64,000 bases of DNA from Pseudomonadota bacterium (lineage in GTDB: Bacteria; Pseudomonadota; Gammaproteobacteria; Burkholderiales; Burkholderiaceae_D). The notes under the pieces were generated by a model that was not told where the DNA came from, ran no database searches, and worked only from the letters and a program-made list of their open reading frames with translations. The stretch's first letter is position 1, and each line of letters opens with the position of its first letter. The translations under genes and the position numbers were made by a program. Where the stretch lies: positions 7,295-71,294 of the forward strand of contig JAZKFW010000084.1 in NCBI GenBank assembly GCA_040386255.1, in the 5' to 3' direction. Positions 9,373-54,671 of the stretch are shown in pieces.

Positions 9373-9717
9373 AAAGCCTCCCTTGCTGAAAGACTATGCG
9401 AATTAGTGCGCCGAGAAAATTGTGACCAAATAATCTTACTCCTGGCCGACCGACAGTTTCATTTTTTTTAACTTGTGCTTTAAATGCAACAAGTGCGCCT
9501 GAGTCCCCCATCTGGCTCTCCCCCGACTGGTCAATGACGTCGCTATGACGCTGACGATTTCGATCGAAAAATATATGGATTGCACCTCGGTGGCGGGCTG
9601 ATGTGTATCAAGTGCCGGCTACTGCTCGCGCGCAACAATGCACCCCAGTTCGACGCAGCCCAGGCGCGATCCCGCGCACCTTCCGTCGAGGTTTTCACGG
9701 GTCAGAGGAGCTTTAAC

Positions 9718-12495: not shown

Positions 12496-13423
12496 TCCGA
12501 CCCTCAATCATGTCGCTGAGGAGATCGATGCCCTTTGCCTGCAACGCGGGCGCTGCGTGCTATTGCTTGATCCGTTTGGCGGCAATCACTTGAAGGCGGC
12601 GATCGATGCGCTGGTATCCCCGCCGGCCCAACGCCTGCGCCTGAACGACCCGATCTTCAAGGACGACCTGGAGAGTGCGCCTTTATTGATCGAGCTGTTA
12701 AGCACGGAGGAGACCCATCAGGAGTTGCTAGCGCAGAGCATCACGCGCGCGCAGGAAGAGGCGCGTAACACGGCCGGGCCGCGCGGAGTCTGCGCTTGGT
12801 TGTTCACCGACGCCCCGCTGCAGCGACTGCAGCACGCAATGCGCCAACGCCTCGATGCGCAATACCCGAAGCGCGAACGCGTATACCTGCGCTATTTCGA
12901 TCCGCGGGTCATGCCACGGTTGGCCGAATTGCTCGGTTCGCCCACCGAAAAGCCAACGCCGCCTTATAGCAGCCTGACGCACCTGCTCGGCCCAATCCAA
13001 ACCTGGTGCCATCTCAATCGCGAAGGCGATCTGCAGCGCCACGACAACCCACAACCCGCCAACGCGGGACTCGGCGGGTACCTGCATTTCGACCAAACGA
13101 CGGCGGCGGCGATCGACCGCATCGAGGCTATCAATTTGACTGCGCGTGCGCTCCTTCAGCGCGCAATGCCGTGCAAGCAAAGCGATGACGGGATGATCGA
13201 CACGCATTTGAGACATGCGAAAAGCCTTGGGCTAACTCAGATTGCTGATTGGGTCGCTTACGCGTGGCGTGCGATGCATCACGGTACCGCATTCACGCGC
13301 CATTCGATGCTGCATCAACTACTTGCGCAAGCGGCGTCGAACGGCATCCCATTCGACGTGCTAGTGGAAGCGCACTTGCCAGCAACCTCTTTCGACATCG
13401 CCCCTAGTGAGACGACAGCATGA
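12482..13423 (+). CDS. DUF4123-family T6SS effector adaptor/chaperone (VasW/Tap-1-like)
   Basis: It overlaps the vgrG stop by 14 nt. The motifs CVLLLDPFGG, APLLIEL and RVYLRYFDPRVMPRL match my memory of DUF4123. Its position between vgrG and a large effector fits that role. Confidence 0.8.
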   Translation: MSNDNPTLNHVAEEIDALCLQRGRCVLLLDPFGGNHLKAAIDALVSPPAQRLRLNDPIFKDDLESAPLLIELLSTEETHQELLAQSITRAQEEARNTAGPRGVCAWLFTDAPLQRLQHAMRQRLDAQYPKRERVYLRYFDPRVMPRLAELLGSPTEKPTPPYSSLTHLLGPIQTWCHLNREGDLQRHDNPQPANAGLGGYLHFDQTTAAAIDRIEAINLTARALLQRAMPCKQSDDGMIDTHLRHAKSLGLTQIADWVAYAWRAMHHGTAFTRHSMLHQLLAQAASNGIPFDVLVEAHLPATSFDIAPSETTA

Positions 13424-16400
13424 GCGGAAAAAAAGACTGCAAATTCTGCGAGAAAAACGGCCTGCTGTGGCTACCCCTGCGCTACAGCGTAGTCGGTTCC
13501 GACTACCCGACCGCGTTCGATCGCCTTCCTGAAATCGGCGGCAAAAAGCTCGGCAAAGGCGTCGTCGACATCAAACTGACTGACCCCAAAAGCAAATACG
13601 CGGTCCGCCTGCTGCGCCCAGGCTATTTATACCTGCTGCTCGATCACAGGGGACTGCGGTACTGGCGCGCGTACCAAGTGCTCGATGACGCCAACTTATA
13701 TGAATTTGACGTCGACAACCCTCCACAAATCGAACCGCAATTCAGCTGCGATCCAATTCTTTGCGGCGTCAATGCGAGCGTGGTGTCGATCCCAGATCCG
13801 CGTAACGTCAAGAAAATGTTTGCGCTCTTCACGCACGCGCCGCTGACCAAAGCGAAGCTGTCGGAGTACCGAGCCAGTGCAGACGCCTACGCGCGCGAAG
13901 GCAAGATGCAAACCTTCAGTCCGGCCGATTGGCTGAACGGAGACACCGAGCAGCTGCACAGCCTGCTAGGGGCGGAATTGTTGACCACCGTAGCGGAATA
14001 CCGGCTCTTTACAGAACCCGGTAACCCCGCGTCACCGCATGCGCGGCCATTCGCCACGCCGTTGAGCCAGGCATTGAACGAGCAGATGATCCCGGCCACG
14101 CGAGACGCCTATGGCGTGGCAATCCCCAACGAAAAAGGCGTGTATGGCGGACGGATGGGTGCGCTGCAAGACCTCATCAAACGCAACGGATACGCCGCAT
14201 TCGTTTTGTACGACCATATCGGCATAACGCAAGAACTGAACGACTTCCGGAACGACGCGTTTATGCCGATCGATGCGTTCATGGGGCAGCGGGACGGTCC
14301 GGGACCCGACAACAGACGCAAGTTTGACGTCTACAACGAAATCACAGAGTGGCGTCAGTTGATGGAGAAAGGTCTGGTGACCAATGCTGAGCACTCTGTG
14401 GAGCAGGCCGATTATTTGCGCCGTGTTCAGCGAGAACCTTTATTCATTGACGACTCCAAAACGATGTTGGCAGATAAAGCCGCAAAGAGCGGTGTTGTAC
14501 CAACGGTCCGGGAGCGCCAGAAATTCCCCAGGCGTAAGGAATGGGAGTCAGCACATCCGGCGATTGTGGAAGAACTTGAGCGAGAACGACAGGTTGACGA
14601 GGACAGCTACATCGAGTTCGCGCAAAACAAAGCGAAAAACGATTGGCGGGACAGATACGCACCCCATCTGGACCTAATGGAGATGGAGAGATTCATCGCC
14701 AAGATGAATGGCATCTCAAAGCAGAGCCAGACAAACGCAAACACACGTGCCGCGCAACACATTAGCTGGCTGAAATCGGAGCGCGTTATCCGCGCGCTTG
14801 ACGTCTGCGACCAAGAGGATCCGATTTCCGGCGAAGCTTTGAGCGCACAGATCTTCCAATGCATCTTCGGAATGGAGGGATGCGCAGAAACAGAGAGAGT
14901 GCTAACAGATTGGGCGACCGCAATACATGTGGAACGCGAAAACCTTTTCTTGCGCGCATTCACCCGCGATCAGAAAGGCGTGAAAGAGGAGTTGGATAAG
15001 TCATTATCCGAAGTACCCGAACAAACGACCGGTACCACAGAATTCACGGTCGGCCCAGCTACGAGTAGCACGACGGCCTCAAAGGGCGTTGTCGCCGCCA
15101 TGAAAGCAACCGATTCAGCGCTCGACGAGTGGATGCGTCAGCAAGGTCAAAGTAAAAGTTACCTCAATCCTAAACACATTGCAAACGTCGAAGCCCGGTT
15201 TTTCTACCTCGTTTCCACAGTGACACGCGCAGTGGCGAGAAAGGGTATCGGAAGCATGCTTGAGATGAAGTTGGTAGGTCGGGCCAATGTGCTTTTGATG
15301 TCGCGTTTAGGAGATTTGGCCGCGAAGTTAGAACATGATACGTTGACCGCACAAATTGACCCAAGTAAATGGAACGATATCAAACAAAAGCATAAGCAGG
15401 CCGAAGTCCAAGCAAGAGCAGCGGAGGCTCGAAAAACCGCGCAACAGAGAAAAGCGTATCGCCTTGCCAAGCGCGCTAAGGCGCAGTTGGAGAACGCTGC
15501 ACTAGATCTAATCTCGGATGCACAATGTAAAGCAAAGTTGCACGTGGCTGCAGGTGCAAAAAGTTTAGGATGGAACGCGCTTCAAGGAGATCTGGAGGAA
15601 AGCGCTAAACAGCATCGAAATTACAAGGACGTCGCAAAGAATCTCGAAGGAAAAAAAACTTCGGCTGAAAGAATACCTAGTTCTCCTAGCCCGACGAACA
15701 ACTATCACCAAGTTCGCCTGGGAGGCGCCCTAGCAGCGATTGAAAGCTTATCTTTGTACAGCAAGATTAAGGAAATGAAAGAACCCGGCTTTAATATTGC
15801 CACAGGCGAAATCATCGCTTCTGCTGCCAGTCTGTCCAGCATACTCGCCGATATGATGTACGCATATACAAAATCAGTTCGCGAACTACCGAATTATATT
15901 GCCATTGATGGAATCAAACAAGGCGCAGATATTGTTCGCGGTGGCTTCAAACTTATCGCTGGATCGTTGGCCTTACTTGCAGGCGTATCAACCGTACTTA
16001 TTGAGTACAGGAAAGCCAAAAACGAGCATGATCCATTTCTACAAGGAATTTTGTACGCGAGGTCATTCCATGGAGGTGCATCAACAATTTTTGGTGCCCT
16101 TGCCGCATTTTCGTATACGGGTCCGCTTCTAAACCATCTTGCAAAGAAGCATTCCCGCGCGGTATATGTTTCAAAGCGCTTGAATGCAGCCGGGACCTTG
16201 GCAAACGCACTTGTTGATCGGGTCACATTGTTGCGCACCGTTGCTTGGCTCGGCTGGGTAGGCGTCATCATTACGGTCGCTGATCTTGCCGTCGCCGGAT
16301 ATCGATGGCATGTCGAGTACACCGCAATTACGCGATGGCTCAGTCGCTGTACGTTCCGCAAGATGAAAACAAACAAGTGCTTCAACTCCCGATGCGAAGA

Positions 16401-16446
16401 GCTCGAAGAACTTCGAAAAGCGCTACAACCGAGAAGCGGAATCTGA
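13420..16446 (+). CDS. T6SS effector, VasX-N-terminal-region family, with hydrophobic C-terminal (pore-forming-like) domain
   Basis: ATGA overlap with the adaptor gene. The N-terminus CKFCEKNGLLWLPLRYSVV has the Cys-x2-Cys plus LP(L/V)RY signature. A Lys/Ala/Gln-rich coiled-coil-like stretch is followed by 4-5 hydrophobic helices in the last ~250 aa. Confidence 0.8.
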   Translation: MSGKKDCKFCEKNGLLWLPLRYSVVGSDYPTAFDRLPEIGGKKLGKGVVDIKLTDPKSKYAVRLLRPGYLYLLLDHRGLRYWRAYQVLDDANLYEFDVDNPPQIEPQFSCDPILCGVNASVVSIPDPRNVKKMFALFTHAPLTKAKLSEYRASADAYAREGKMQTFSPADWLNGDTEQLHSLLGAELLTTVAEYRLFTEPGNPASPHARPFATPLSQALNEQMIPATRDAYGVAIPNEKGVYGGRMGALQDLIKRNGYAAFVLYDHIGITQELNDFRNDAFMPIDAFMGQRDGPGPDNRRKFDVYNEITEWRQLMEKGLVTNAEHSVEQADYLRRVQREPLFIDDSKTMLADKAAKSGVVPTVRERQKFPRRKEWESAHPAIVEELERERQVDEDSYIEFAQNKAKNDWRDRYAPHLDLMEMERFIAKMNGISKQSQTNANTRAAQHISWLKSERVIRALDVCDQEDPISGEALSAQIFQCIFGMEGCAETERVLTDWATAIHVERENLFLRAFTRDQKGVKEELDKSLSEVPEQTTGTTEFTVGPATSSTTASKGVVAAMKATDSALDEWMRQQGQSKSYLNPKHIANVEARFFYLVSTVTRAVARKGIGSMLEMKLVGRANVLLMSRLGDLAAKLEHDTLTAQIDPSKWNDIKQKHKQAEVQARAAEARKTAQQRKAYRLAKRAKAQLENAALDLISDAQCKAKLHVAAGAKSLGWNALQGDLEESAKQHRNYKDVAKNLEGKKTSAERIPSSPSPTNNYHQVRLGGALAAIESLSLYSKIKEMKEPGFNIATGEIIASAASLSSILADMMYAYTKSVRELPNYIAIDGIKQGADIVRGGFKLIAGSLALLAGVSTVLIEYRKAKNEHDPFLQGILYARSFHGGASTIFGALAAFSYTGPLLNHLAKKHSRAVYVSKRLNAAGTLANALVDRVTLLRTVAWLGWVGVIITVADLAVAGYRWHVEYTAITRWLSRCTFRKMKTNKCFNSRCEELEELRKALQPRSGI

Positions 16447-16502
16447 GCAAAGAAAAAAAACAACAAACGGGTAGCCTACATTCTAAGTTGAGGGGTATCA
16501 CA

Positions 16503-17264
16503 ATGAATATGCAACAGGAAGCTCAATTCTTTGTTGTCGAAGGCACGATCCAAGCTATGCAGATATCATCCGGCAGTGTGAATCTAATCGAAGACATACA
16601 AAATGGTGCTTTCTGGACCGGCGTGGCCGCAGGAGTTGGAGGTGAAGCCGGAGTGTTAGCGAATTCCGCCAGTCTGACCCTGTATGACGGCGAAGAAGTC
16701 GAGCATATGGCTTTACTAATTAACGATCGGCTTGCAATTGGAACATTCGAATGGCTTCGAGATCTGATGATAGATGACGATGTAAAGCTAGTCGTGTCTG
16801 AAACCGACGCCGGGCCATTATTTGTTCACGCGATTCTTCGCAAGAACGACCAGTTACTATGGACACCACTCTGTGTGAATCATACGCGCCGGGGCTGGAT
16901 GTTACACGGCGTAAAGCTGGGTTCGACAGGTCTTTTGGGCATGATTCTTATGTTCGGATCAATTTTCGTTTTGGATGAGAAGAGCAGACCCGACGGGCCA
17001 TGGCTATTATTCGGAATATTTTTCACAATCGCATTAATTTCATTTGTCGTATTTATGAGCACTGCAAGCGTTATCCATCAGGGAGACTACGCGGAGAAAA
17101 TATTTCGTGCGCTCGGGGTCCCAAAAGCTGACAGGTTTCAGATAAAGCCTTATTCAATTTTCAATTTGCATTTTGAACACGCAGAGGAACCTTTTAAAAA
17201 AAACCATATCTATCAATTTTCCGATGCGCTGTACGCTCATAAACTCAAGTTTAATCTACCGTAG
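16503..17264 (+). CDS. Putative immunity protein 1 (2-TM membrane protein, unknown family)
   Basis: ATG 16503 lies 7 nt after GAGGGG, immediately downstream of the effector. Two hydrophobic helices (LGSTGLLGMILMFGSIFVL and WLLFGIFFTIALISFVVFMSTASVI). It is a paralog of the next gene. Confidence 0.55.
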   Translation: MNMQQEAQFFVVEGTIQAMQISSGSVNLIEDIQNGAFWTGVAAGVGGEAGVLANSASLTLYDGEEVEHMALLINDRLAIGTFEWLRDLMIDDDVKLVVSETDAGPLFVHAILRKNDQLLWTPLCVNHTRRGWMLHGVKLGSTGLLGMILMFGSIFVLDEKSRPDGPWLLFGIFFTIALISFVVFMSTASVIHQGDYAEKIFRALGVPKADRFQIKPYSIFNLHFEHAEEPFKKNHIYQFSDALYAHKLKFNLP

Positions 17265-17565
17265 TTCTTTAAAATCTCTCCGGCTGTATGCGCGTGGCGC
17301 TATTCATCGATGAAAGCACATTCACTGCGCCGGGACGCGTGCATTTCATTTCGATACCGAAAACGACTCATTTGTCACAAGGAAAAACGCCGGGGCGTCG
17401 CGGGGGAAGCCGGTTCGATGATGGTTGCACCATATCATGAGGACTACACTATGTGCGGACATCTAGCTTACTAATGACGATCGCTGCGGCGCGCGCACAG
17501 CAGCTTTCTGACCGTGGGTTCTTACGAATGCCCCAATCAGCCATGATTAGCAGTGGAGAATGACT

Positions 17566-18312
17566 ATGCCGGAAACTCAACAATTATTTATCGTTCAAGG
17601 TCCGATTCAAGAACTACGAGTATCTCCTGACATCGCAAAATTAATTTTCGATCTGCAAACTGAAGCATTTGTTTCTGGTGTATTTTCCGGCTTCGCGGGA
17701 CAAGCGGGCGTGGCGGCAAATTCGGCAAGCGTCGCAATGTATGACGGCGAAGATGTGGAGCATTTAGCCCTGCTGATTAATGACAAACTTGTCGTCGGCA
17801 CCTTTGAATGGCTACGTAACCTGAACGTGGGAGATCAGGTCACACTGGTGGTATCGACAATTGACGATGGCCCCCTGTTCGCGCACGCTATCCTTCGCAG
17901 CAATGATCAGCTCCTGTGGACCCCGTTTTCCGTCGATCACACACGCCGGGGCTGGATACTGCACGCTGTGAAATTAGGGCTGCTTGGTTTAATCGGAACT
18001 TGGCTTATGCTTGGCTCGTTCTATATTCTTGGTAGTAGACCGACCGCAGAGGTTATGGCTTGGACGTTCGTCTTTTCTATTTTGCTAATCACTTTCGTCG
18101 TGTCTATGAGCACAATGGGGGTGATGCACTTAGGTGTGCAGGCGGAGGCTATTTTTCAAGCGTTGAAAGTACCAAAATTCGAGCAATTTAGAATCAAGCC
18201 CTACTCACTTCTTCGCATGCGCTCTGCGAACGACGCAGACCGCTTCAGAAAAGGGCATATATTCTATTTTGCAGATGCATTATCTGCGCACAAAAAGAAG
18301 TTTAGATTGTAG
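17566..18312 (+). CDS. Putative immunity protein 2 (paralog of 16503..17264)
   Basis: It shares blocks with the previous gene: YDGE(E/D)VEH(M/L)ALLIND, GTFEWLR, NDQLLWTP, HTRRGW, (Q/R)IKPYS. The two-helix topology is the same. ATG 17566 lies 7 nt after GGAGA; the alternative ATG is at 17560. Confidence 0.55.
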   Translation: MPETQQLFIVQGPIQELRVSPDIAKLIFDLQTEAFVSGVFSGFAGQAGVAANSASVAMYDGEDVEHLALLINDKLVVGTFEWLRNLNVGDQVTLVVSTIDDGPLFAHAILRSNDQLLWTPFSVDHTRRGWILHAVKLGLLGLIGTWLMLGSFYILGSRPTAEVMAWTFVFSILLITFVVSMSTMGVMHLGVQAEAIFQALKVPKFEQFRIKPYSLLRMRSANDADRFRKGHIFYFADALSAHKKKFRL

Positions 18313-18337: not shown

Positions 18338-21093
18338 TCACGCGATCAGTTTCAGCCCTTGAGGCAGCGTCTCGCCGAACACGCGCCGTTCGGTCGCCTC
18401 GTCCAGTGCGACCACTTCTTCCACCATCTGGATCCAGATAGCTGGCGCATTCACCTGGCGCAGGCGCGCGGCGATGGTGTCGCGCAGCGCCTGCGGCAAA
18501 TCGCGCGCGCGATCGCCCGTCATGCGCGCCAGGTAGGCGGCGGCAAATGCGGCCGGCTCGAGCCGGCGCCAGTCGAGCGCGAGGACGGCGTCGAGCCAGG
18601 TGGCGACAACGTCAGCCGGCACCAGGTCGTCGAGGTTGCCGTAAAAAGGCTGGCGCGCGCCGATCCGGCCCAGCGCCCACAGCGTGAGCGCGTCGTTCGC
18701 CTTGCCGAGGCGCGCCAGCAGCCACTCGCCGATCTCCACCTTGTAGGCGGGCGGGATGCGTTCGAGCGAGGCGCCCAGGCGCAGCATGTCGTCGTCGCTG
18801 CCGCGCACCACCGCGCCATCGTCCACGCCGCCTTCGTTGACTTCCAGGTTGGCGGCGAAATCTTGAAGCAATCGCTGCTGCTGTTGCGCATCGAGGCCGC
18901 CGGCCACGCGCCGCCACAAGGTCCACCATTCGGCCTGCACCTGCTTGTCGGCGCCGTGTGCCACGCCGGCCTCGAACAAGGTCCACAGCTGCTGCAGCCG
19001 CCAATCGTCCAACGCGAAGCCGAAGCCGGGCCGCAGGCAGTATCCGGCGAGGTTGAGCCACAGCCGCTCGTGTTCTGGCGAGCGGCGCCGCGCCTTGGCG
19101 CGCAGCCACAGGGCATCGAACAGCTGACGCAGCAGCGGCGTGCTCCAGCCGGCACGATCGCCCAGCACCTGCTCGAGCTGCGCGCGCAGCTGCTTCACTT
19201 CCTTGGCCGGCACCTGCTGCGCCTTGGCGCCGAAGATCCGTTCGATCTGCGGCAGCGCCAGCGCCAGCCGCGCGGCAGCGCCATCGTCGTCGATGGCTTC
19301 GGCGGCTTCATCGTGCTGGCGCAGGTCGAACTCCAGCAGCCAGCGCTCGCTCGCATCGTCGACGCCGACGCAATGCATTTCCAGCGTACCCACCTCGGTC
19401 AGCGCGGTGGCCAGCTGCACCGGCACTTCGCGCCGCGTGGTAGTTGCGGACGCGCGCAGGACCATCGCGATCGGCGGCAGGCGCGCAAAGTCGCCGTCGT
19501 CGAGGTCGACCAGTTCGCCCAGCGCGAACGGCGCGCGGCCGGCGACCTCCGCGCTCGACGTGAACAAGTGGAAGCGCACCGGCTCGCCGACCCGCAACGC
19601 AAAGTTGTGCGCGTCGAGGCGCAGTTCCTGGCCCGCCTCGCTGCCGCGCGGCAGGATGCAGATGGCGCGGCGCGCGCCTTTCCTGGCCTCGCCGAGCAGC
19701 AGAAAATAGCTGCGCGCGGCGCCGCCACCGATCTTCGGCGTGCCGCCTTCGCCGGCCAGCGCGTACGCCACCGCGCCGCGTGCCACCGCGACGTCCGGGT
19801 CGTCGTTGTGCAGCACCCGCAGCGGGGCGCCGCGCCAGGCGCCCAGGGTCGCCTCGATGCGGCTTGCCAGTGCACTGGCGCGGAACACGCCGCCGTTAAG
19901 CAGCAGGGTGTCAGGCACTGTCTCGTTGTTGGCCTCGCGCACGGCATCGGCGTGGCGGCGCAGGAAGTCGGCAACGTGGCGCGTGATGGCCGCGTCGCGC
20001 GCATAAGGCAGGCCGAATTCGACGATGCCGGCGCGCCGTTGCAGCAGCGGCTCGGCGGCGTCCACGCGCGGGAAGAAGCCGTCGACGATCAGCGTTTCGA
20101 CTTCATCGCGCGTCAACGTGGCCGAGCGCGCGCCGCCGATCAGCCGCGCGCCGGCGCCGAGCAGCGTGACGTTGACATGGTCCGGCGCATCGGCGGCGAG
20201 CAGCTGCTCCTTGGCGGCGCGGCAGCGCTCTACCAGCTGCGACAGGCGGCTGGCCGACAGCCGCTCGGCGCCGCCGCCCAGGCGCGACTCGGCCAGGTGG
20301 GCCAGCGCGGTGTCCATGTTGTCCCCGCCCAGCATCAGGTGGTTGCCGACGCCGATGCGCGTGATGCTGGTCTGGCCGTCGCGCAGTTCGACCTTGATCA
20401 GGCTGAGGTCCGTGGTGCCGCCGCCGACGTCGCACACCAGCACCAGGCGCGTGTCGGCCAGCGCCTCAGCGAGCGAGGCGCGGTGGCGCCGCAGCCAGTC
20501 GTAGAACACCGCCTGCGGTTCTTCCAGCAGCCGCAGCGTCGGCAGGCCGGCGGAGCGGGCCGCCGCCAGCGTCAGCGCGCGCGCCGCTTCGTCGAACGAG
20601 GCGGGCACCGTCAGCACCAGGTCCTGCTGCTCCAGCGGGTCGTGCGGGAAGCGATGGTTCCAGGCCGATCGCAGGTGCGCGAGGTAGCTGGCGCTCGCTT
20701 CCACCGGCGACACCTTGGGCACGTCGGGCGCACCGCCCCATGGCAGGATCGGCGCAAGGCGGTCGACGCCGGAATGCGAGAGCCAGCTCTTGGCGCTGGC
20801 CACCAGGCGCCCTGGCACCTGCGCGCCGAGCTTGCGCGCCAGCGTGCCAACGACCACATGCTCCGGCGTCGCCCACGGCAGCTGCAGGTCGGCTTCGGCC
20901 AGCTCGCCGGCGCCGGCCTGGTAACGCACCGACGGCAGCAGCGGCAGCGCGGATACTTCGCCTGGCGCGACCAGCTGCTCGACTTCGAACAACGTCACCG
21001 GTCCCGCAGTCTTGCCTAGTTCGGAGTAGGCGAGCACGGTGTTGCTGGTGCCCAGATCGATGCCGACCGCGTACCTGGCCACGCGCGCCGCCA

Positions 21094-21094
<1 letters not shown>
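18338..21094 (-). CDS. Atypical long Hsp70-family ATPase (about 918 aa) with helical C-terminal extension
   Basis: Actin/Hsp70 nucleotide-binding motifs: AVGIDLGTSNTVLAY, CDVGGGTTDLSLI, LGGDNMD. About 300 aa of uncharacterised Leu/Ala/Trp-rich C-terminus. A GTG at 21094 overlaps the upstream TAG by 1 nt; the alternative GTG is at 21082. Confidence 0.8.
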
Positions 21095-22931
<1,837 letters not shown>

Positions 22932-32310: not shown

Positions 32311-32949
32311 CTAGAACAGGTCGATCCCATGAAGGGTCAGGAAGGCATCTGTCCCTGTCGCGGTCAGCAATGGCACGGCCGCGCCGGCGACCGCCAGGCT
32401 AACCCGGTCAAACACCGCCACGCAAGGTTCGCCCGAGAAGCGCGAGGTGAAATAGATGCCGTCGAGGTTGTTCACGTTGTCATGCACAGCCTCGCTCCAC
32501 AAGCTCGGGCCTTCATAGTCATTGACTGACATGATCAGCGTGCTTGCGCCGAACGGTGCCAGCGGCTGGGTGAAGTCGACCAGGCGCAATGGCCGTGCGG
32601 GATCGGTCACGACGCGCGAGATGCTACGGGTGTCGAACTCGGTCTGCTCGATGAGCAAGGGCACCGGCACGCCGGCAAAACGGTCGCGCACAATGGTCTC
32701 GAACACGCAGCATGATAGCGAAAAGCCGCCATACAGGACACCAAACTCGCGTCCCGGGGCGCTCCCGGCCGGGGCGTCGAAGCGGTACCGTTGGGTGGTG
32801 ACGGAGGGTTGATTGAAGTGGACGGCGCCGCGCGAGCTACGATGGACCCGGTACAGGGGCCGCGCGTGCAGGTCGATCGTGACGACCGGAAGTGTGCGGT
32901 TGGTAATCCCTGGCGGCGGAAGCGGACAACCCCCTGCCGCAGTCATCAT
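32311..32949 (-). CDS. RES-domain toxin (Xre/RES, MbcT/ParT-type)
   Basis: RYRFDAP (Arg), GVLYGGFSLSCCVFETIVRD (Glu) and GIYFTSRFSG (Ser) give the R-E-S pattern. ATGA overlap with the upstream antitoxin gene. Confidence 0.8.
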   Translation of the reverse strand: MMTAAGGCPLPPPGITNRTLPVVTIDLHARPLYRVHRSSRGAVHFNQPSVTTQRYRFDAPAGSAPGREFGVLYGGFSLSCCVFETIVRDRFAGVPVPLLIEQTEFDTRSISRVVTDPARPLRLVDFTQPLAPFGASTLIMSVNDYEGPSLWSEAVHDNVNNLDGIYFTSRFSGEPCVAVFDRVSLAVAGAAVPLLTATGTDAFLTLHGIDLF

Positions 32950-33692
32950 CCGGCCCCCTGGTCACCGTGGAAGCGGTTACGTGCCAGGACGGCCACGCGC
33001 TCAAGGTCCTGCGCGGCGTCGCTGATCCAGTCGCGTGGTGCTGCGCCGTCGAGCAAGCTGCTGGGGGATATCATGAAGACATGGATTCCCCAGGCAGTGG
33101 AGCCCGCTGCGCGCGCGATGGCGAGCACCGATTGCAGGCGCTGCTCCGGCACGTCAAACTGCCATCGCGGGAAGCGAAACCCGCGGGTTTGCCCTTCTGC
33201 CAACAGCGCATAGTAGCGGCCGTCGTTGCGGCGCTCGTTGATCACGCGGGTCGACAGGCCAACATGCTCGGAAGCCTGTTCCAGCGACAGATTGCCGGGG
33301 TTGGCATATTCCGTGCGTTTCCACGCAGCGCCGCGTTCGCGCGCGGCGGCAACCGCCTCGCTGGGAGGGTTGAGGCGCTCGGCCAGCTTCTCCTCCACCG
33401 CCTTGTTTATCATCTGTTCGAGGGTCGAACTCGCGCCATGCGCCCACCGTTTCGCTCTGATCCTTGCACGCTTGGACAAGAAGGCGGCCACCCTGCTCGG
33501 AGCATTGGGGACGAATGCGTCGATATTGCCCGCCAATGCCCTGGGTCCGCCCAGTTTTCTTGGCTGCACGAGTGGCGTCTGCAGCACGCCGGTCGCGTCG
33601 CCGTTCCCTTGCGGAGTTATGACGGAGGTCGACCCAACCCGGGGGCGGATGCGGTTTTTACTCTGCAATGGTCGGAACGGCGCGTAGGTCAT
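32946..33692 (-). CDS. Xre/MbcA/ParS-type antitoxin (HTH plus C-terminal DUF2384-like toxin-binding domain)
   Basis: HTH-like LSLEQASEHVGLSTRVINERRNDG. The C-terminus AWGIHVFMISPSSLLDGAAPRDWISDAAQDLERVAVLARNRFHG resembles DUF2384. The N-terminal ~100 aa is low-complexity, so the true start is uncertain. Confidence 0.7.
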   Translation of the reverse strand: MTYAPFRPLQSKNRIRPRVGSTSVITPQGNGDATGVLQTPLVQPRKLGGPRALAGNIDAFVPNAPSRVAAFLSKRARIRAKRWAHGASSTLEQMINKAVEEKLAERLNPPSEAVAAARERGAAWKRTEYANPGNLSLEQASEHVGLSTRVINERRNDGRYYALLAEGQTRGFRFPRWQFDVPEQRLQSVLAIARAAGSTAWGIHVFMISPSSLLDGAAPRDWISDAAQDLERVAVLARNRFHGDQGAG

Positions 33693-33738: not shown

Positions 33739-35568
33739 TTACTCCACCGTCACGGATTTAGCCAGGTTGCGCGGCTTGTCGACGTCGGTGCCACGCGCCA
33801 AGGCAGTGTGATACGCCAGCAACTGCAGCGCAGCCACGTGCAGGATCGGCGACAGCAGGCCGTAGTGTTCCGGCAAGCGGATCACGTGTACGCCGTCGCC
33901 CGAGGTGATGCGCGAATCGACGTCGGCAAATACGTACAGCTGGCCGCCGCGCGCGCGCACTTCCTGCATGTTCGACTTCAGCTTTTCCAGCAGCGCGTCG
34001 TTCGGCGCGATCGTTACCACCGGCATCTCTTCGGTCACCAGCGCCAGCGGGCCGTGCTTGAGCTCGCCGGCAGGGTAGGCTTCGGCGTGGATGTACGAGA
34101 TTTCCTTCAGCTTCAGCGCGCCTTCGAGGGCGATCGGGTAGTGGATGCCGCGGCCGAGGAACAGCGCGTTTTCCTTGCGCGCGAAGTCGTCGGCCCAGGC
34201 GATGATCTGCGGCTCGAGCGCCAGCACGGCGGCCAGCGCAACCGGCAAGTGACGCATCTGTTTCAGGTAAGTTGCTTCCTCGTCGTCGGACAGGCGGCCG
34301 TTCACTTGCGCCAGCGTCAGCGTCAGCAGGAACAGCGCGGCCAGCTGGGTGGTGAAGGCCTTGGTCGATGCCACGCCCACTTCGACACCGGCGCGGGTGA
34401 TGTAAGCGAGCGCACACTCGCGCACCATGGCGCTGGTAGCGACGTTGCAGATGGTCAGGGTGTGCTCCATGCCGAGGCTGCGCGCGTGCTTCAGCGCGGC
34501 CAGCGTGTCGGCCGTTTCGCCGCTTTGCGTGATCGTCACCACCAGCGTGTTCGGATGCGGCACGCTGTCGCGGTAGCGGTATTCGCTGGCGATCTCGACG
34601 CTGACCGGTACCTTGGCGACCGACTCGATCCAGTATTTGGCGGTCAGGCCCGCATAGTAGCTGGTGCCGCAGGCGAGGATCAGCACGCGGTCGATCTGCT
34701 TGAATACCTTGAAGGCGTTGTCGCCGAACAGCTCCGGCATGATGCCGGTGACGCCTTCGAGGGTGTCGCCGATGACGCGCGGCTGCTCGAAGATTTCCTT
34801 CTGCATGTAGTGGCGGTACGGACCCAGCTCGGCGGCGCCGGTGTGCGCGTGCACGGTCTTGACTTCGCGCGTGACCGCACGGCCATCGACGTCAACGATC
34901 CAGTAGCGGCCCAGTTGCAGGTCGACGACGTCGCCTTCTTCGAGGTAGATGATCTGGTCGGTGGTGCCGGCCAGCGCCATCGCGTCGGAAGCGACGAAGT
35001 TCTCGCCCTCGCCGACGCCGACGATCAGCGGCGAACCCTGGCGCGCGGCGACCACGCGGTGCGGCTCCTCGCGGCTGAAGACGGCGATCGCGTAGGCGCC
35101 ATGCAGGCGCTTGACCGCCTGCTGGACAGTGTCGAACAGGTCGCCGTTGTACATGTGGTCGACCAGGTGGGCGATCACTTCGGTGTCGGTCTGGCTGGTG
35201 AACACGTAGCCGAGCGCGGTCAGTTCGGCGCGCAGTTCGTCGTGGTTCTCGATAATGCCGTTGTGGACCAGCGCGATGCGGGCCGATTCTTCGGTCGGCG
35301 AAAAGTGCGGGTGCGCATTGTGCGACAGCGGCGCGCCGTGCGTTGCCCAGCGCGTGTGGGCGATGCCGGTGAAGCCTTCCATGCCGGCACTGTTCATCTG
35401 AGCTTCCAGCTCGGTGACGCGCGAGGTGCTGCGCGAACGCTGCAGCTTGCCGTCCCGATGCAGGGCGACGCCGCAGGAGTCATACCCGCGATACTCGAGG
35501 CGCTTCAGGCCTTCGAGCAGGATAGGGGTGATGTTACGCTGCGCTACTGCTCCGACGATGCCGCACAT
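33739..35568 (-). CDS. glmS: Glutamine--fructose-6-phosphate aminotransferase
   Basis: [33 protein letters not shown] (N-terminal Cys nucleophile), two SIS domains, C-terminal ...NLAKSVTVE. 609 aa. Confidence 0.97.
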
Positions 35569-38314: not shown

Positions 38315-39691
38315 CTACTTCTTGACCTTGACCGGCCGCTGCCAGGCGTCGATCGTCATCTGCCTGGCGCGCGAAATGGTCAGCTTGCCGGCCGGCGCAT
38401 CCTTCGTCAGCGTCGTGCCCGCGCCCAAGGTCGCCCCTTTGCCCACCGTCACCGGCGCCACCAGCTGGCTGTCGCTGCCGATGAAGGCGTCGTCCTCGAT
38501 CACCGTCCGGTATTTGTTGACGCCATCGTAATTGCAGGTAATCGTGCCGGCGCCGATATTGACGCGCGAACCGACCGTCGCATCGCCCACGTAGCTCAAG
38601 TGGTTGGCCTTGCTGTGCGCCGCGATGGTGCTGTTCTTCACTTCGACGAAGTTACCGATATGAACGTCCTCGGCCAGCTCGGCGCCCGGACGCAGGCGCG
38701 CGTACGGGCCGATCATCGACTTCGGCCCGACCTTGGCGCCTTCGATGTGGCAGAACGGCTTGATCTGCGCGCCCGCCGCGATGCTGGCGTTGACGATGAC
38801 GTTGTGCGCGCCGACCGACACGCCGTCGGCCAGCTCGACGCGGCCCTCGAACACGCAGCCGACGTCGATCGTCACGTCGCGCCCGCAGATGAGCGTGCCG
38901 CGGATATCGATGCGCGCCGGATCCATCAGCGTGACGCCTTGCTCGAGCAGCGCGTTGGCCTTGTTCAACTGGTGGCGGCGCTCCAGCTCGGCCAGCTGCA
39001 CCTTGCTGTTGACGCCGGCCACTTCCCACTCGGCCGACGGCTGCGCCGACACCACCGGCACGCCGTCCGCCACCGCCTTGGCGACGATGTCGGTCAGGTA
39101 ATACTCGCCCTGCGCATTGTTGTTCGACAGCGAGCCCAGCCATTCTTTCAGCTGGCGGGTCGGGGCGACGATGATGCCGCTGTTGATCTCGCGGATCGCG
39201 CGCTCGGCCTCGCTGGCGTCTTTCTCTTCGACGATGCGGACGATGTTGCCGCCGTCGCGCACGATGCGGCCCAGCCCGAACGGGTTGGCCTGTTCGACCG
39301 TCAGGATCGCCAGCTTGTCGCTGCCGGCGGCCTCGACCAGGCGGCGCAGCGAGGCCGACGTGGTCAGCGGAACGTCGCCGTACAGGATCAGCGTCGGCGC
39401 GTTGTCGTCGAGCTGAGGCGCCGCCTGCATCACGGCGTGGCCGGTGCCCAATTGCGGTTCCTGCAGCGCGGTATCGATGATTGCGTGCTCGCCATTGTTC
39501 TGCAGTTTCACCATCTCAGGCACCGCTGCGCCGCCGTGCCCGTAAATAACGCATAATTTGCGCGGCGCAAGTTCACGTGCGGTATCAATAACGTGTTGCA
39601 ACAATGGCTTGCCCGCTAAAGGATGCAAGACTTTTGGCAGTGCGGATTGCATCCGCTTTCCCATGCCGGCGGCGAGAATCACAACATTCAT
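38315..39691 (-). CDS. glmU: Bifunctional UDP-N-acetylglucosamine diphosphorylase / glucosamine-1-phosphate N-acetyltransferase
   Basis: [32 protein letters not shown]-terminus and a left-handed beta-helix hexapeptide C-terminal half. 458 aa. Confidence 0.95.
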
Positions 39692-51034: not shown

Positions 51035-52150
51035 ATGATAGTAGGGGTTCCAAAAGAGATTAAGAACAACGAGTACCGGGTCGGCCTCACGCCTCCCAGC
51101 GTACGCGAACTGACCTCGCGGGGTCACCAGGTGCTGGTGCAGAAAAGCGCCGGCCTCGAGATCGGCTTGCCTGACGAACAGTACGTCGCGGCAGGCGCGT
51201 CCATCGTCGACACCGCGAAGGAAATCTTTGCCCGTGCGGAAATGATCGTCAAGGTCAAGGAACCGCAGCCCGGCGAATGCGCGATGCTGGGCGAAGGCCA
51301 GATCCTGTACACCTATCTGCACCTGGCGCCGGATCCGGATCAGACGGCGGCGCTGGTGCGTTCGGGCGCGGTCTGCATCGCCTACGAAACCATCACCGGC
51401 GCCGGCGGCGGCCTGCCGCTGCTCGCGCCGATGAGCGAAGTGGCGGGGCGCATGGCGATCCAGGCCGGCGCCGCCCACCTCGAGAAATCGAAAGGCGGCA
51501 TGGGCTTGCTGCTGGGCGGCGTGCCTGGCGTTGCCGCCGGTCACATCGTGATCATCGGCGCCGGCGTGGTCGGCACCAACGCGCTGCAGATGGCGATCGG
51601 CACCGGTGCGCGCGTTACCGTGCTCGACAAGAACATGGACCGCCTGCGCCAGCTCGACCTGATTTTCGGCAACCGCATCGCCACCCAGTATTCGAACGCG
51701 CACGCAATCGAGGAAGCGGTGCTGTCGGCCGACCTGGTCATCGGCGGCGTGCTGGTGCCAGGCGCCGCGGCGCCGAAGCTGGTCACGCGCGACATGATTT
51801 CACGCATGAAACCGGGCGCGGTGGTGGTCGACGTCGCCATCGACCAGGGCGGCTGCTTCGAGACTTCGCACGCGACGACGCACGCCGATCCGACCTTCAA
51901 CCTCGATGGCGTGGTGCACTATTGCGTCGCCAACATGCCTGGCGCCGTTGCCCGCACCTCGACCTTCGCGCTCAACAACGCCACCATTGGCCACGCTGTG
52001 GCACTTGCGGAGAAGGGCTGGAAGCAGGCCATGCGCGACGACCCGCACCTCAGGAACGGCCTTAACGTGTGCCTGGGCAAGGTCACCTACGCCGCGGTGG
52101 CGCAGGCGCTGGACTACGAGTACGCGGCGGCGGACTCGATGCTTGGGTAA
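51035..52150 (+). CDS. ald: Alanine dehydrogenase
   Basis: [20 protein letters not shown], the NAD motif [11 protein letters not shown] and [23 protein letters not shown]. It starts 36 nt after putA. Confidence 0.93.
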
Positions 52151-52914
52151 TCCAGGCAAAAACGCCTGACGATATGGAAGGCATAGCGCGCGGCGACCGA
52201 TTTCACGAAATGTAGAAAATCGGTCGCCGCGTCTTCATTTGCGTTGTCGGAAATCGTACGGATGACGGCGAACGGCACGCCCAGCTCGAAACACACTTGC
52301 GCCACCGCCGCCCCCTCCATCTCGACCGCCAGCAAGCCTGGATGGGACGAATTCAATCGTTCGATATGGCCACGGCTGCTGACGAACTGGTCGCCGCTGG
52401 CGATCAGGCCGCGGTGCACCCGCGGCTGACCCAGCCTGAACACCTGCCTGTCTTCCAAACCGATCACATCCCGAAAGTCCGCTTCCAGGAATCCGAGCGC
52501 CGCGCCGGCCAGCTGCGCCGACAACCGTGAATCCGAGGGAAAGTTCGAAATACCGGTCAACGGCACCTCGAAACGAGGGAAAAGGGGACTGGCGTCCATG
52601 TCGTGCTGCACCAGCGATTCGCCGATGACAATGTCGCCAACCCGCACGCCGGCATCGCCAGAACCTGCCACACCGGTGAACAGGATGTGGGTAACTCCGA
52701 ACTTCTCCACAAGCATCGCCGCCGTCATCGATGCCGCGACCTTGCCAATACGCGACAGGACGCACACAGCGTCGATGCCGAACAGTCGGCCGGTGGAGTA
52801 GTCACGCATGCCGTGCACGACCATGGCGGCCCCTTCCATGGCTTGCACGAGCCCTTCCTGTTCTTCATGAAGGGCGCTGATGATTCCTAAGCGCTTGATT
52901 TTGTGGTGATTCAT
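52114..52914 (-). CDS. PNP_UDP_1 family nucleosidase (MTA/SAH nucleosidase-like)
   Basis: LGIISALHEEQ, FTGVAGS, GDQFV and VEMEGAAVAQVC...IRTISD are Pfs/MtnN-like motifs. Its 3' end overlaps the ald 3' end by 37 nt (convergent). Confidence 0.75.
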   Translation of the reverse strand: MNHHKIKRLGIISALHEEQEGLVQAMEGAAMVVHGMRDYSTGRLFGIDAVCVLSRIGKVAASMTAAMLVEKFGVTHILFTGVAGSGDAGVRVGDIVIGESLVQHDMDASPLFPRFEVPLTGISNFPSDSRLSAQLAGAALGFLEADFRDVIGLEDRQVFRLGQPRVHRGLIASGDQFVSSRGHIERLNSSHPGLLAVEMEGAAVAQVCFELGVPFAVIRTISDNANEDAATDFLHFVKSVAARYAFHIVRRFCLDYPSIESAAAYS

Positions 52915-52966
52915 GGTTCTGGAAGACGGTTTTCAGCGCTTGTCCACATTCTTCGCTGCGTTTACT

Positions 52967-53031
52967 GTTTTATACAAAGATATATATATAAATTTAGTAG
53001 TAATAGTAAACGGCGATTTTTTTGTGGATAA
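52967..53031 (+). repeat. Origin-unwinding-like module 1: A/T tract, TAG/TAA trinucleotide run, spacer, DnaA box
   Basis: 52967-52994 is an A/T-rich tract with a single C and two Gs. 52995-53009 reads TAG TAG TAA TAG TAA. A 13-nt spacer ACGGCGATTTTTT follows, then TGTGGATAA at 53023-53031. Confidence 0.5.
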
Positions 53032-53400
53032 CTCGGTTTTTATCAACAGGCTCAACGGTTTACGGCGTTTACAAGTACGCTCAAAAACATTGTATCCAGT
53101 TGGGATCATTGTTGGATAAAAAATCGGCTGTGGACAAATGGATGAGTTCTGCACATTAGACCCTGTGGATATCCAACAGCTTATCCACAGCCTTGGCCGT
53201 CGAGCCGTCAACTCGCGAAAGCGGGGATCAATGCCGAGCTATCAAAAGGGTAAGCTTGTCAAAATGGTTGGCTCATCGATTTTTGAAAAAGTAAAACCGT
53301 CTGCACAAAAAATAGTCATCAACGTTTGCCTTCTTTTTTTGACGCGAAGGTCCGGAGACACGGTTTTCGGGCTTTTCGAAGTCCTCTTTTCGTTTGCTTG

Positions 53401-53467
53401 TTTACTTAAACAAGTATGTATACAAGTTTAGTAGTAGTAGTTAACGCAGGCCATTTTCTGTGGATAA
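53401..53467 (+). repeat. Origin-unwinding-like module 2 (direct repeat of module 1 architecture)
   Basis: 53401-53428 is AT-rich and contains TATACAA, as module 1 does. 53429-53440 reads TAG TAG TAG TAG. An 18-nt spacer TTAACGCAGGCCATTTTC follows, then TGTGGATAA at 53459-53467. Confidence 0.5.
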
Positions 53468-53633
53468 GGCCATATTCTTTCACAAAATCAACAACTTGCA
53501 CGCTGTATAAACCGGTTAACGACTTTGTATGCTGCTGGTGGCAATTCTGGACAATTTCTGGGGTGTGAATAAAATAGGGTTTATCCACAAACCGTACCTG
53601 TGGATATTCATAGACTTATCCACAGGAGGTTGT

Positions 53634-54671
53634 ATGGACGTGTTGTCGCTGATGGAATTCCCGATCGTTCAAGGGCCGATGGCCGGAGGTTCCTGCACGC
53701 CTGCCCTGGTGGCCGGGGTGTCGAACGCCGGTGGTCTGGGCAGCCTGCCCGGCTCGCTTCTCACGCCCGCGGCAATCCGCGAGCAGGTCGGACAGGTCCG
53801 CACGATGACCGATCGGCCGTTCCAACTCAATTTCTTCGTTCAGGCAACGCCCGCGCCCAGCGAACAGGAAGTGAAAGCCGGCGTCGAATTGCTGCGCCCC
53901 ATATGGGAAAGCCTGGGCTGGAGCGAACTGCCGCTGCCGGCCCAGTGGGCGCAGGACTTCGGCGCCCAGTTCGAAACGCTGCTCGAATTGAAGCCCGCCG
54001 CCGCCAGCTTCACTTTCGACATCTTGTCGGAGACGCAAGTCGAGCGCCTGCACTCGGCCGGCATCGCCGTCATCGGCACCATCACCACGTTGGAAGAAGC
54101 GCTGGCCTGGGAGAAAATCGGCGCCGACGCCGTGGTGGCGTCCGGCATCGAGGCGGGCGGACACCGCGGTACTTTCCTCGGCCCGCAGGAAGAAGCGACG
54201 CTGTCGGCGCGCAAGCTGTGGCCGCTGGTGGCGGAAGCGGTCGAGATTCCCGTCATTGCCGCCGGCGGCATCATGACCGGCGTCGACATCCAAGAAGCAT
54301 TGTCGCTCGGCGCCAGGGCCGTACAGATGGGAACCGCCTTCCTCGTGACCGACGAGTCCGGCATCCATCCAGCCTACAAGCAGAAGCTGCTGTCGGGCAG
54401 CGGCCTGACGACGCGGCTGACCCGCAGTTTCTCCGGCCGCTACGCCCGCGGCATCGAAAATCGTTTCATGAAGCAAATGGAGAGTGTGGAGACGCAAGTT
54501 CCAGCGTATCCTGTGCAAAATGCATTGACAGGAAGTATACGAGCAGCCGCCGCAGCCAGCGGCGACACCGAACTGATGTCGATGTGGGCCGGCGCCGAAG
54601 TCGGCCGTTCGCGCGCGCTGTCGGTGGCGCAGCTGATGCAAACGCTGGTGGCGGAGATGCGCCCTACTTGA
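53634..54671 (+). CDS. Nitronate monooxygenase (NMO / 2-nitropropane dioxygenase family)
   Basis: ATG 53634 follows AGGAGG. PIVQGPMAGGSCTPALVAGVSNAGGLGSL, GIEAGGHRG and IPVIAAGGI are FMN-binding TIM-barrel motifs. Confidence 0.85.
   Translation: MDVLSLMEFPIVQGPMAGGSCTPALVAGVSNAGGLGSLPGSLLTPAAIREQVGQVRTMTDRPFQLNFFVQATPAPSEQEVKAGVELLRPIWESLGWSELPLPAQWAQDFGAQFETLLELKPAAASFTFDILSETQVERLHSAGIAVIGTITTLEEALAWEKIGADAVVASGIEAGGHRGTFLGPQEEATLSARKLWPLVAEAVEIPVIAAGGIMTGVDIQEALSLGARAVQMGTAFLVTDESGIHPAYKQKLLSGSGLTTRLTRSFSGRYARGIENRFMKQMESVETQVPAYPVQNALTGSIRAAAAASGDTELMSMWAGAEVGRSRALSVAQLMQTLVAEMRPT

Follow-up and report, generated by a model that had tools for sequence, protein, structure and literature searches.

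In the 64,000-nucleotide stretch of contig JAZKFW010000084.1 (assembly GCA_040386255.1, positions 7,295 to 71,294 of the forward strand) analyzed here, and referred to below as the window, two divergent genes, mtnN and a gene for a nitronate monooxygenase-like protein, are separated by a spacer of 720 bp that carries two copies of a unit resembling a chromosomal replication origin (Table 1). Both genes, mtnN on the left and the monooxygenase gene on the right, are transcribed away from the units. A preliminary description of this DNA had recognized in the spacer two modules of the same orientation, each with AT-rich DNA, a run of TAG/TAA trinucleotides, a short spacer and a DnaA box, and had proposed, among other options, a duplicated unwinding element. 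Re-reading of the sequence bore out the coordinates and sequences of both modules. They lie on the + strand and form a direct repeat (52981-53012 and 53415-53446, with 84% identity and a spacing of 434 nt according to a repeat finder), and their order of AT-rich DNA, 5'-TAG/TAA-3' trios, spacer and 5'-TGTGGATAA-3' is that of the DnaA-trio model, or basal unwinding system (BUS), with an R1-type box. The duplication stands as well, but what is duplicated is larger than an unwinding element: a search with a profile of 79 units (nhmmer) finds exactly two units in the window and none elsewhere in it, and each module is therefore the left end of a complete unit of ~245 nt, unit A for module 1 and unit B for module 2. 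The same two units are present on an independent public contig, L081 (GCA_040384025.1). An exact look-up of the mtnN of the window leads only to a contig of 8.5 kb.

Table 1. Features of the mtnN-monooxygenase spacer and its flanks (positions in the window; DUE, DNA unwinding element).
Feature	Position	Strand	Remarks
mtnN (5'-methylthioadenosine/S-adenosylhomocysteine nucleosidase)	52114-52914	-	NCBIfam NF004079, E 7e-80
DnaA box TTGTCCACA, left of DUE-A	52940-52948	+	1 mismatch; kept in near relatives
Unit A, complete oriC-type unit	52953-53198	+	nhmmer E 2e-56
DUE-A, AT-rich unwinding element of unit A (A/T tract of module 1)	52967-52994		one C and two G, otherwise A/T (sequence read directly); forms the least stable 25-mer with the first trios
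Trio run of unit A (module 1), TAG TAG TAA TAG TAA	52995-53009	+	n=5; conserved as TAGTAGTARTAGTAAACG in relatives
Spacer of module 1, ACGGCGATTTTTT	53010-53022		13 nt
R1-type perfect DnaA box, unit A (module 1)	53023-53031	-	TGTGGATAA read on the + strand
IHF-like site CTCAACGGTTTA, unit A	53051-53062	+	28 nt from R1 start
Right-hand DnaA-box array, unit A	53111-53189		GTTGGATAA at 53111, TGTGGACAA at 53129, TTCTGCACA at 53147
Convergent box pair, unit A	53164 / 53181		TGTGGATAT / TTATCCACA; +141/+158 from R1
Linker between units	53199-53384		non-conserved
Unit B, second complete oriC-type unit	53385-53630	+	nhmmer E 7e-50
DUE-B, AT-rich unwinding element of unit B	53398-53428		second least stable 25-mer
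TATACAA within AT-rich DNA of module 2	53419-53425		
Trio run of unit B (module 2), TAG x4	53429-53440	+	n=4; then GTTAAC at 53440-53445
Spacer of module 2	53441-53458		18 nt
R1-type perfect DnaA box, unit B (module 2)	53459-53467	-	TGTGGATAA read on the + strand
IHF consensus site AATCAACAACTTG, unit B	53486-53498	+	fits WATCARNNNNTTR; core ATCAACAACTTG +28 from R1 start
Right-hand DnaA-box array, unit B	53546-53624		starts with TCTGGACAA at 53546
Convergent pairs, unit B	53564 / 53581; 53599 / 53616		TGTGAATAA / TTATCCACA; TGTGGATAT / TTATCCACA
Nitronate monooxygenase-like gene	53636-54671	+	Pfam PF03060, precomputed for the identical protein in L081

The pattern TARTARTARTAR, four TAG/TAA triplets in a run, was searched for on both strands of the 64 kb and occurs only at modules 1 and 2, with three overlapping matches at the two sites against 0.01 expected; none of 100 shuffles reached three matches. 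Eleven of the 17 DnaA boxes with at most one mismatch (4.3 are expected for the whole window) lie between 52940 and 53624, as do all five perfect boxes of the window, which makes this the densest box cluster in the 64 kb. The least stable 25-mer of the spacer (52981-53005, -20.9 kcal/mol) lies ~4.8 standard deviations above the window mean (-38.1 kcal/mol, standard deviation 3.6), and the second least stable is found at 53419-53443 (-25.4 kcal/mol). Both overlap the junctions of AT tract and trios in modules 1 and 2, and the least stable DNA stops 28 nt (unit A) or 30 nt (unit B) ahead of R1. Only the shortness of the motifs would favour taking the trio runs for chance low-complexity sequence or for a recent, meaningless duplication; since three matches were found where 0.01 were expected, since the runs are kept in register in dozens of genomes, and since the two units are only distantly alike, each being closer to its counterparts in other genera, we regard such an origin of the runs as very improbable.

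In the BUS model, an unwinding element, the trios and a reverse-oriented R1 box follow one another in the sequence, and the gene on the left is transcribed away. The corresponding search requires a run of three or more trinucleotides whose middle base is A (consensus 3'-GAT-5') and accepts a box, single boxes included, with up to two mismatches and within 0-16 bp of the first trio, the commonest spacer being 13 bp. Both modules contain such a run, composed entirely of TAG or TAA, and both show the order and orientation of the model with the reverse box 5'-TGTGNAWAA-3'; module 1 lies inside the limit on the box-to-trio distance (13 nt) and module 2 outside it (18 nt as compared with 16 nt). No match was obtained in the window with a fixed-distance composite pattern for both modules, because their spacers differ in length. 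A second DnaA box between R1 and the trios, with up to four mismatches, was not found when both spacers were read by eye. Counted from R1 rightward, unit A has seven boxes with at most two mismatches and unit B has six, in contiguous arrays. For the manual recognition of oriC, one scheme (Weigel, 2025 preprint) looks for an unwinding element that is followed, after about two helical turns, by a reverse-oriented consensus box, for trios between the two, for boxes in a contiguous array and for a gene on the left that is transcribed away. All of the sequence elements of this scheme are present in both units, and the flanking gene, mtnN, is found for unit A only, the left neighbour of unit B being unit A and not a gene.

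The mtnN neighbourhoods of relatives were collected from one genome per species; the best match of the window among those fetched is that of Massilia soli (74% amino-acid identity). Units were found upstream of mtnN in 38 Oxalobacteraceae genomes, of Massilia, Janthinobacterium, Duganella, Pseudoduganella, Undibacterium, Noviherbaspirillum and further relatives, with mtnN as the conserved neighbour throughout, and no DnaA boxes were seen beside mtnN in the loci of Cupriavidus, Ralstonia, Paraburkholderia and Comamonadaceae. The arrangement that recurs is AT-rich DNA, TAG/TAA trios, a perfect TGTGGATAA and, 141 nt further on, the convergent pair TGTGGATAT-N8-TTATCCACA. Together with the window, the genomes provide 94 units of one common layout, in which R1 is perfect in nearly all cases, otherwise with one mismatch, and the far box lies at +156 to +161. 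The consensus of an alignment of 79 stretches reads, in its left half, GGTTTACA, AT-rich TATA.AAA, TAGTAGTAATAGTAAACG, N5 with TTTTC and TGTGGATAA, and in its right half AATCAnnnGTTTAC, weak boxes such as cTGGACAA, TTnnGCACA and TCCTGTGGATAT-N8-TTATCCACA; its AATCAnnnGTTTAC agrees with the IHF consensus WATCARNNNNTTR. A scan of metagenomes for R1 with the convergent pair gave 120 stretches, 49 with three units, 41 with two and 30 with one, many of the stretches being incomplete; mtnN adjoins the units wherever the flank is present. Genomes and stretches taken together, most carry two or three units, and a few a single one within the DNA covered.

The units fall into two types. In type A, to which 51 units belong, the trios end in TAGTAAACG and the spacer is 13 nt long in nearly all cases, and 14 nt in three. 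In type B, GTTAAC stands 12-13 nt ahead of R1 in the copies checked. The distance between R1 and the last canonical trio is 17-24 nt in this type and varies mostly by multiples of three; in module 2, and in those relatives where it is 18, 21 or 24 nt, the triplets in between keep the register of the trios. A strict IHF site is commoner in type B (21 of 38 units) than in type A (12 of 51), and the mean least-stable 25-mer is -23.7 kcal/mol for type A and -25.0 kcal/mol for type B. Counted outward from mtnN, the order is AAB in 17 genomes and AB in 13, the window included; among the remaining eight, two have BB and the others single units or other arrangements. In three relatives B-type units stand alone, as BB in two and as a single B in one. 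The units group by type and position across genera and not by genome: unit A of the window falls among the mtnN-proximal units of L001, L002 and Janthinobacterium, and unit B among the mtnN-distal units of Massilia and not with unit A. The copies are thus old paralogues rather than the product of a recent duplication, although a separate, younger duplication of a unit has occurred in at least one lineage (L038).

The comparison with relatives that the preliminary description had called for supports its interpretation, with refinements. Both modules are kept, in near relatives as well as across genera; the distance between them is not, and the distance from trios to box depends on the type of unit, being 13 (rarely 14) nt in one type and 17-24 nt in the other. 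From start to start, the units are about 290 nt to about 3.4 kb apart, with ~290-610 nt in tandem arrays, and inverted copies occur in L012 and L034. In loci of the Duganella and Pseudoduganella kind (L018, L022, L026, L029, L030, L032, L027, L028 and L033) a gene for a GGDEF/EAL sensor protein (~940-1050 codons, stop to stop) lies between the A-type unit or units and the B-type unit, in a gap of 2.8-3.4 kb; a replication gene such as priA was considered for the right-flank open reading frames (ORFs) of the Duganella-type loci and ruled out, since they encode these GGDEF/EAL-type sensor proteins. In two loci, L059 and L037, which come from an Undibacterium genome and a Lacisediminimonas metagenome-assembled genome, mtnN itself stands between two units, direct in L059 (3730-3960 and 4803-5032) and inverted in L037 (3731-3961 and 4768-4996).

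Four near relatives, with mtnN products 82-87% identical to that of the window at the amino-acid level, were used to compare the rates of change. At the nucleotide level unit A is 0.78-0.87 and unit B 0.83-0.87 identical to the window, whereas the third codon positions of mtnN are 0.67-0.73 identical. The linker reaches 51-61%, with many indels, in three of the four and is mostly absent in the fourth, L162, where 36 nt align at 72%. L001 and L002 give the same picture, with conserved units and no conservation of the linker. Since the units are more alike than the third positions of mtnN, and these more than the linker, both units are under purifying selection and the linker is not. Among the trios of unit B the first three are kept, and the fourth is TTG in three near relatives.

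This anatomy, its conservation and the age of the paralogues lead us to propose that the mtnN-monooxygenase spacer is the chromosomal origin region of an Oxalobacteraceae bacterium, made of two autonomous DnaA-dependent unwinding units, a reading to which we assign a probability of roughly 0.55. That the array is a chromosomal origin region appears highly probable from its sequence, and, if it is one, both units are likely to be able to unwind. The same features suggest that DnaA and IHF would bind at both units. On the pattern of the DnaA-trio/BUS model and of the orisome of E. coli, DnaA would occupy the perfect R1-type box and the right-hand boxes of each unit, and IHF would bend the DNA at the site 28 nt from the start of R1. 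A filament of DnaA-ATP anchored at R1 could then cross the spacer to the trios of the + strand (5'-TAG/TAA-3', that is 3'-GAT/AAT-5') and keep the trio strand single-stranded, while the adjacent AT-rich element would open for helicase loading. Initiation could thereby take place at two sites at a distance of 434 bp, either alternatively or at the same time, and the site that fired first would replicate the other passively. The units are viewed as autonomous because the spacing, the orientation and the genes between the copies vary, and each as an initiation module because every copy retains an AT-rich tract and trios at a distance from R1 that is specific to its type. Unit A should melt more easily, given its -20.9 kcal/mol and its canonical spacer; type B, being alone in three relatives, must suffice there if the units are origins.

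It is conceivable, and in our view rather unlikely, that the region is an origin in which one unit fires and the other serves as an auxiliary DnaA/IHF module that loads, titrates or times DnaA, or as a back-up or decoy. The firing unit could be unit A, with its canonical 13-nt spacer and weakest duplex, or unit B, whose type is found in almost every lineage. The consistent differences between types A and B in spacer, stability, GTTAAC and frequency of IHF sites would fit such a division of labour, as would the far weaker duplex of DUE-A in the window (-20.9 as compared with -25.4 kcal/mol for DUE-B). In E. coli, moreover, separate loci with DnaA boxes and IHF sites, datA and DARS, regulate DnaA, and they provide a precedent. 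However, a module that only binds DnaA would need neither an AT-rich element nor trios at a set distance from R1, yet both are kept across genera, and lineages with B-type units only exist as well as lineages with A-type arrays. The option of one functional core with a decoy, which the preliminary description had also raised, is disfavoured on the same ground, since every copy retains the AT-rich element and the trios. A step beyond two autonomous units would be that replication of Oxalobacteraceae chromosomes starts from an array whose two or three origins fire independently, types A and B being specialized for conditions or regulators; this is a tentative idea that we hold to be doubtful. 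If it were true, the copy number and the arrangement of origins (tandem, gene-split, inverted or flanking mtnN) would be an evolvable trait.

Several observations weigh against an origin built from two unwinding units. In unit B 18 nt separate R1 from the nearest canonical trio, and in near relatives the gap is 21 nt, beyond the 16-nt limit of the BUS search; and a run of at least three consecutive strict TAG/TAA trios is present in 26 of the 51 A-type and 22 of the 38 B-type units. No GC-skew switch is seen at 53 kb, the 2-kb skew being about -0.015 on both sides with only 11 kb of DNA to the right, nor does the third-position skew of the + strand genes change there (-0.11 on the left, -0.12 on the right). 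The genes putA and ald, left of the region, are transcribed towards it. No DnaA protein motifs occur in the six-frame translations of the window and of 202 loci, which excludes a linkage to dnaA, and no parS consensus is found in the window. In the genome papers for two Oxalobacteraceae, Herbaspirillum seropedicae and strain HH01, a coarse skew served, with no test, to put the origin at dnaA; the literature searched yielded no experimental origin data for Oxalobacteraceae. An AT-skew switch at 53 kb is likewise not detected within the window, and with one KOPS-like (FtsK-orienting polar sequence) site, GGGNAGGG, in the 64 kb, the polarity of such sites is unusable. We consider the skew of the window to be weak evidence, uninformative rather than contradictory, as it is dominated by the coding-strand effect and the flank on the right is too short.

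The absence of a skew switch from the window, the unlinked dnaA and the two genome papers would fit the reading that the array is not the origin and that the true oriC lies elsewhere, for example at dnaA; the array might then be a DnaA-binding regulatory or titration locus, a set of secondary or cryptic origins (compare the second autonomously replicating element of P. aeruginosa) or a means of placing the flanking promoters under DnaA control. Its position at ~364-368 kb of the record in Duganella sp. P38 (NZ_CP193936.1) would also fit, as would the overlap of the promoter and ribosome-binding site of the monooxygenase gene with the boxes of unit B. Even so, we judge this unlikely. The full set of origin hallmarks is present, including a spacing of R1 and IHF site identical to that of E. 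coli oriC, and the region is the densest box cluster in the 64 kb, with its five perfect boxes. The origin assignments in the genome papers are coarse, and the right flank varies among lineages, which can blur a local skew. Furthermore, related Burkholderiales are known to have skew-supported origins at a great distance from dnaA, so that such a position is normal in this order. In Cupriavidus metallidurans CH34, of the sister family, the GC skew switches 90 kb away from dnaA, next to 213 nt that hold three perfect boxes. In Ralstonia pickettii (12D) a hemE-adjacent origin candidate lies 291 kb from dnaA. Like these clusters, which are compact, hold about three good boxes and lie 90-290 kb from dnaA, one unit has about three strong boxes in 167 nt; the CH34 and 12D clusters, compared here by description and not by sequence, differ in having other flanking genes and in being described as single. 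A search for plasmids with the region gave no match, and the region is therefore not a plasmid-type origin. The DnaA-box array has the genes glmS and glmU (33739-35568 and 38315-39691, both on the - strand) 14-19 kb to its left. Since glmUS also lies close to oriC in E. coli, this proximity is a weak hint at an old origin-proximal neighbourhood.

One of the characterized origins closest to the units is E. coli (K-12) oriC, an origin of the gammaproteobacterial type with left and right DnaA-oligomerization regions and R4. Like the units, it has an AT-rich unwinding element with a single, reverse-oriented, perfect R1 box TGTGGATAA, weak boxes of the same orientation, a terminal box of opposite orientation and a left gene transcribed away. 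Its IHF core ATCAACAACCTG lies at +28 from the start of R1, as do ATCAACAACTTG in unit B, identical to it in 11 of 12 bases, and CTCAACGGTTTA in unit A; the distance from R1 to the inverted terminal box TTATCCACA is 158 nt in the units and 180 nt in E. coli. Unlike E. coli oriC, the units have explicit TAG/TAA runs, a convergent box pair at the far end and no clusters of GATC (one site in unit A, none in unit B). Such clusters, which serve Dam/SeqA sequestration, are not expected outside Dam-carrying gammaproteobacteria. The BUS of B. subtilis (boxes 6/7) shares with the units the order of the elements, the strand and the 3'-GAT-5' consensus of the trios and, with unit A, the spacer of 13 nt; it has a tandem pair of boxes by the trios, whereas the units have one proximal box, as in E. 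coli, and are present in two copies. By analogy, the unit can be described as an oriC of the E. coli type that carries an explicit trio run of the B. subtilis type. Its multiplicity is the unusual part: E. coli has a single oriC, the window two copies of the unit and the relatives up to three.

Bacterial chromosomes are taught as having a single origin, and one to three copies of an origin-like unit, as found in the relatives, are unusual for bacteria. According to a 2025 preprint, Pseudomonas aeruginosa is the only known exception to the single bacterial origin. Its oriC1 and oriC2, and the origins predicted in Halomonadaceae, are like the present arrays in that a chromosome holds more than one complete element with unwinding region, trios, R1 and IHF site, and in the lineage-specific loss or degradation of copies. 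They differ in lying in separate intergenic regions (rpmH-dnaA, and beside mnmG) with genes between, whereas the units described here are paralogous repeats, up to three in number, without linkage to dnaA and placed within one spacer in the window and most relatives. Bipartite origins, such as incAB/incC of B. subtilis and oriC1/oriC2 of Helicobacter pylori, also consist of two clusters of boxes, sometimes split by a gene; they have a single unwinding site and sub-regions with unequal roles, whereas in the present arrays every copy comes with an AT-rich element and trios. For Mycobacterium bovis BCG, large segmental duplications of the dnaA region are on record. In the literature searched, DoriC not included, neither Oxalobacteraceae nor other Burkholderiales were described as having tandem or multiple complete oriC units. 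Among public sequencing runs, only metagenome contigs turned up, and no isolate or RNA runs.

Oxalobacteraceae offer, across the family, a natural case of a complete origin-type unit that has long been kept as two or three diverged copies in a flexible arrangement. Such a system would allow one to ask whether origins that lie side by side act as competitors, as partners or as back-ups for each other, how an extra load of DnaA boxes affects the timing of initiation, and how far the DnaA-trio mechanism tolerates changes in the distance between box and trios (13 as compared with 18-24 nt). Predictors that keep one origin or BUS candidate per genome, or that treat a whole spacer as one oriC, will miss this structure.

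Some further features of the spacer and its flanks may be mentioned. In unit A an inverted repeat, GCCGTTTACTG / CAGTAAACGGC at 52956-52970 / 53002-53015, encloses the AT-rich element and the trios; as single-stranded DNA it folds with -9.1 kcal/mol (z -2.75), and a stem of this kind is missing from unit B. Units of type A repeatedly contain GTTTAC...GTAAAC, and B-type units have the palindrome GTTAAC in its place. The repeat of unit A may serve as a site for a protein, or may form a hairpin that influences melting. A sigma-70 promoter composed of GGTTTACA and TATACAA on the + strand was considered and discarded, the spacing, judged by eye, being just 12 nt. The only promoter-like site of the region, TGGACA-16-TAAAAT at 53548-53575, lies inside unit B and overlaps its boxes, and the start codon of the monooxygenase gene follows 11 nt past the last DnaA box, with GGAGG in between; how strongly this gene is expressed probably depends on DnaA occupancy, and its transcription runs outward from unit B. 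The protein encoded at 53636-54671 was assigned to no family by hmmscan (NCBIfam, Pfam), whereas PF03060 (NMO) and related entries are listed for the identical protein of L081, so that the miss probably reflects an oddity of the tool or its filter and not biology. Just upstream of unit B, at 53369-53384 on the + strand, there is a terminator-like hairpin with a T run; its sequence is not kept in L001 and L002, although a T-rich tract is. Rfam and tRNA scans of the region gave no match, and it is therefore not a known RNA element.

Elsewhere in the window, a type VI secretion effector island (9580-18312) comprises genes for a VgrG protein (9580-12495), a DUF4123 chaperone (12482-13423) and a VasX-N toxin (13420-16446), together with two ORFs without a family. 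Its GC content falls to 0.48-0.52, and because of this drop the island was probably acquired horizontally. It adjoins a gene (18338-21436, - strand) for an Hsp70-like protein of 1032 amino acids with a C-terminal DUF3731 'DnaK-related' domain. At 32311-33692, on the - strand, a gene for a RES-domain protein (32311-32949) is overlapped by an upstream ORF of 248 amino acids without a family, and the two look like a RES/antitoxin pair.

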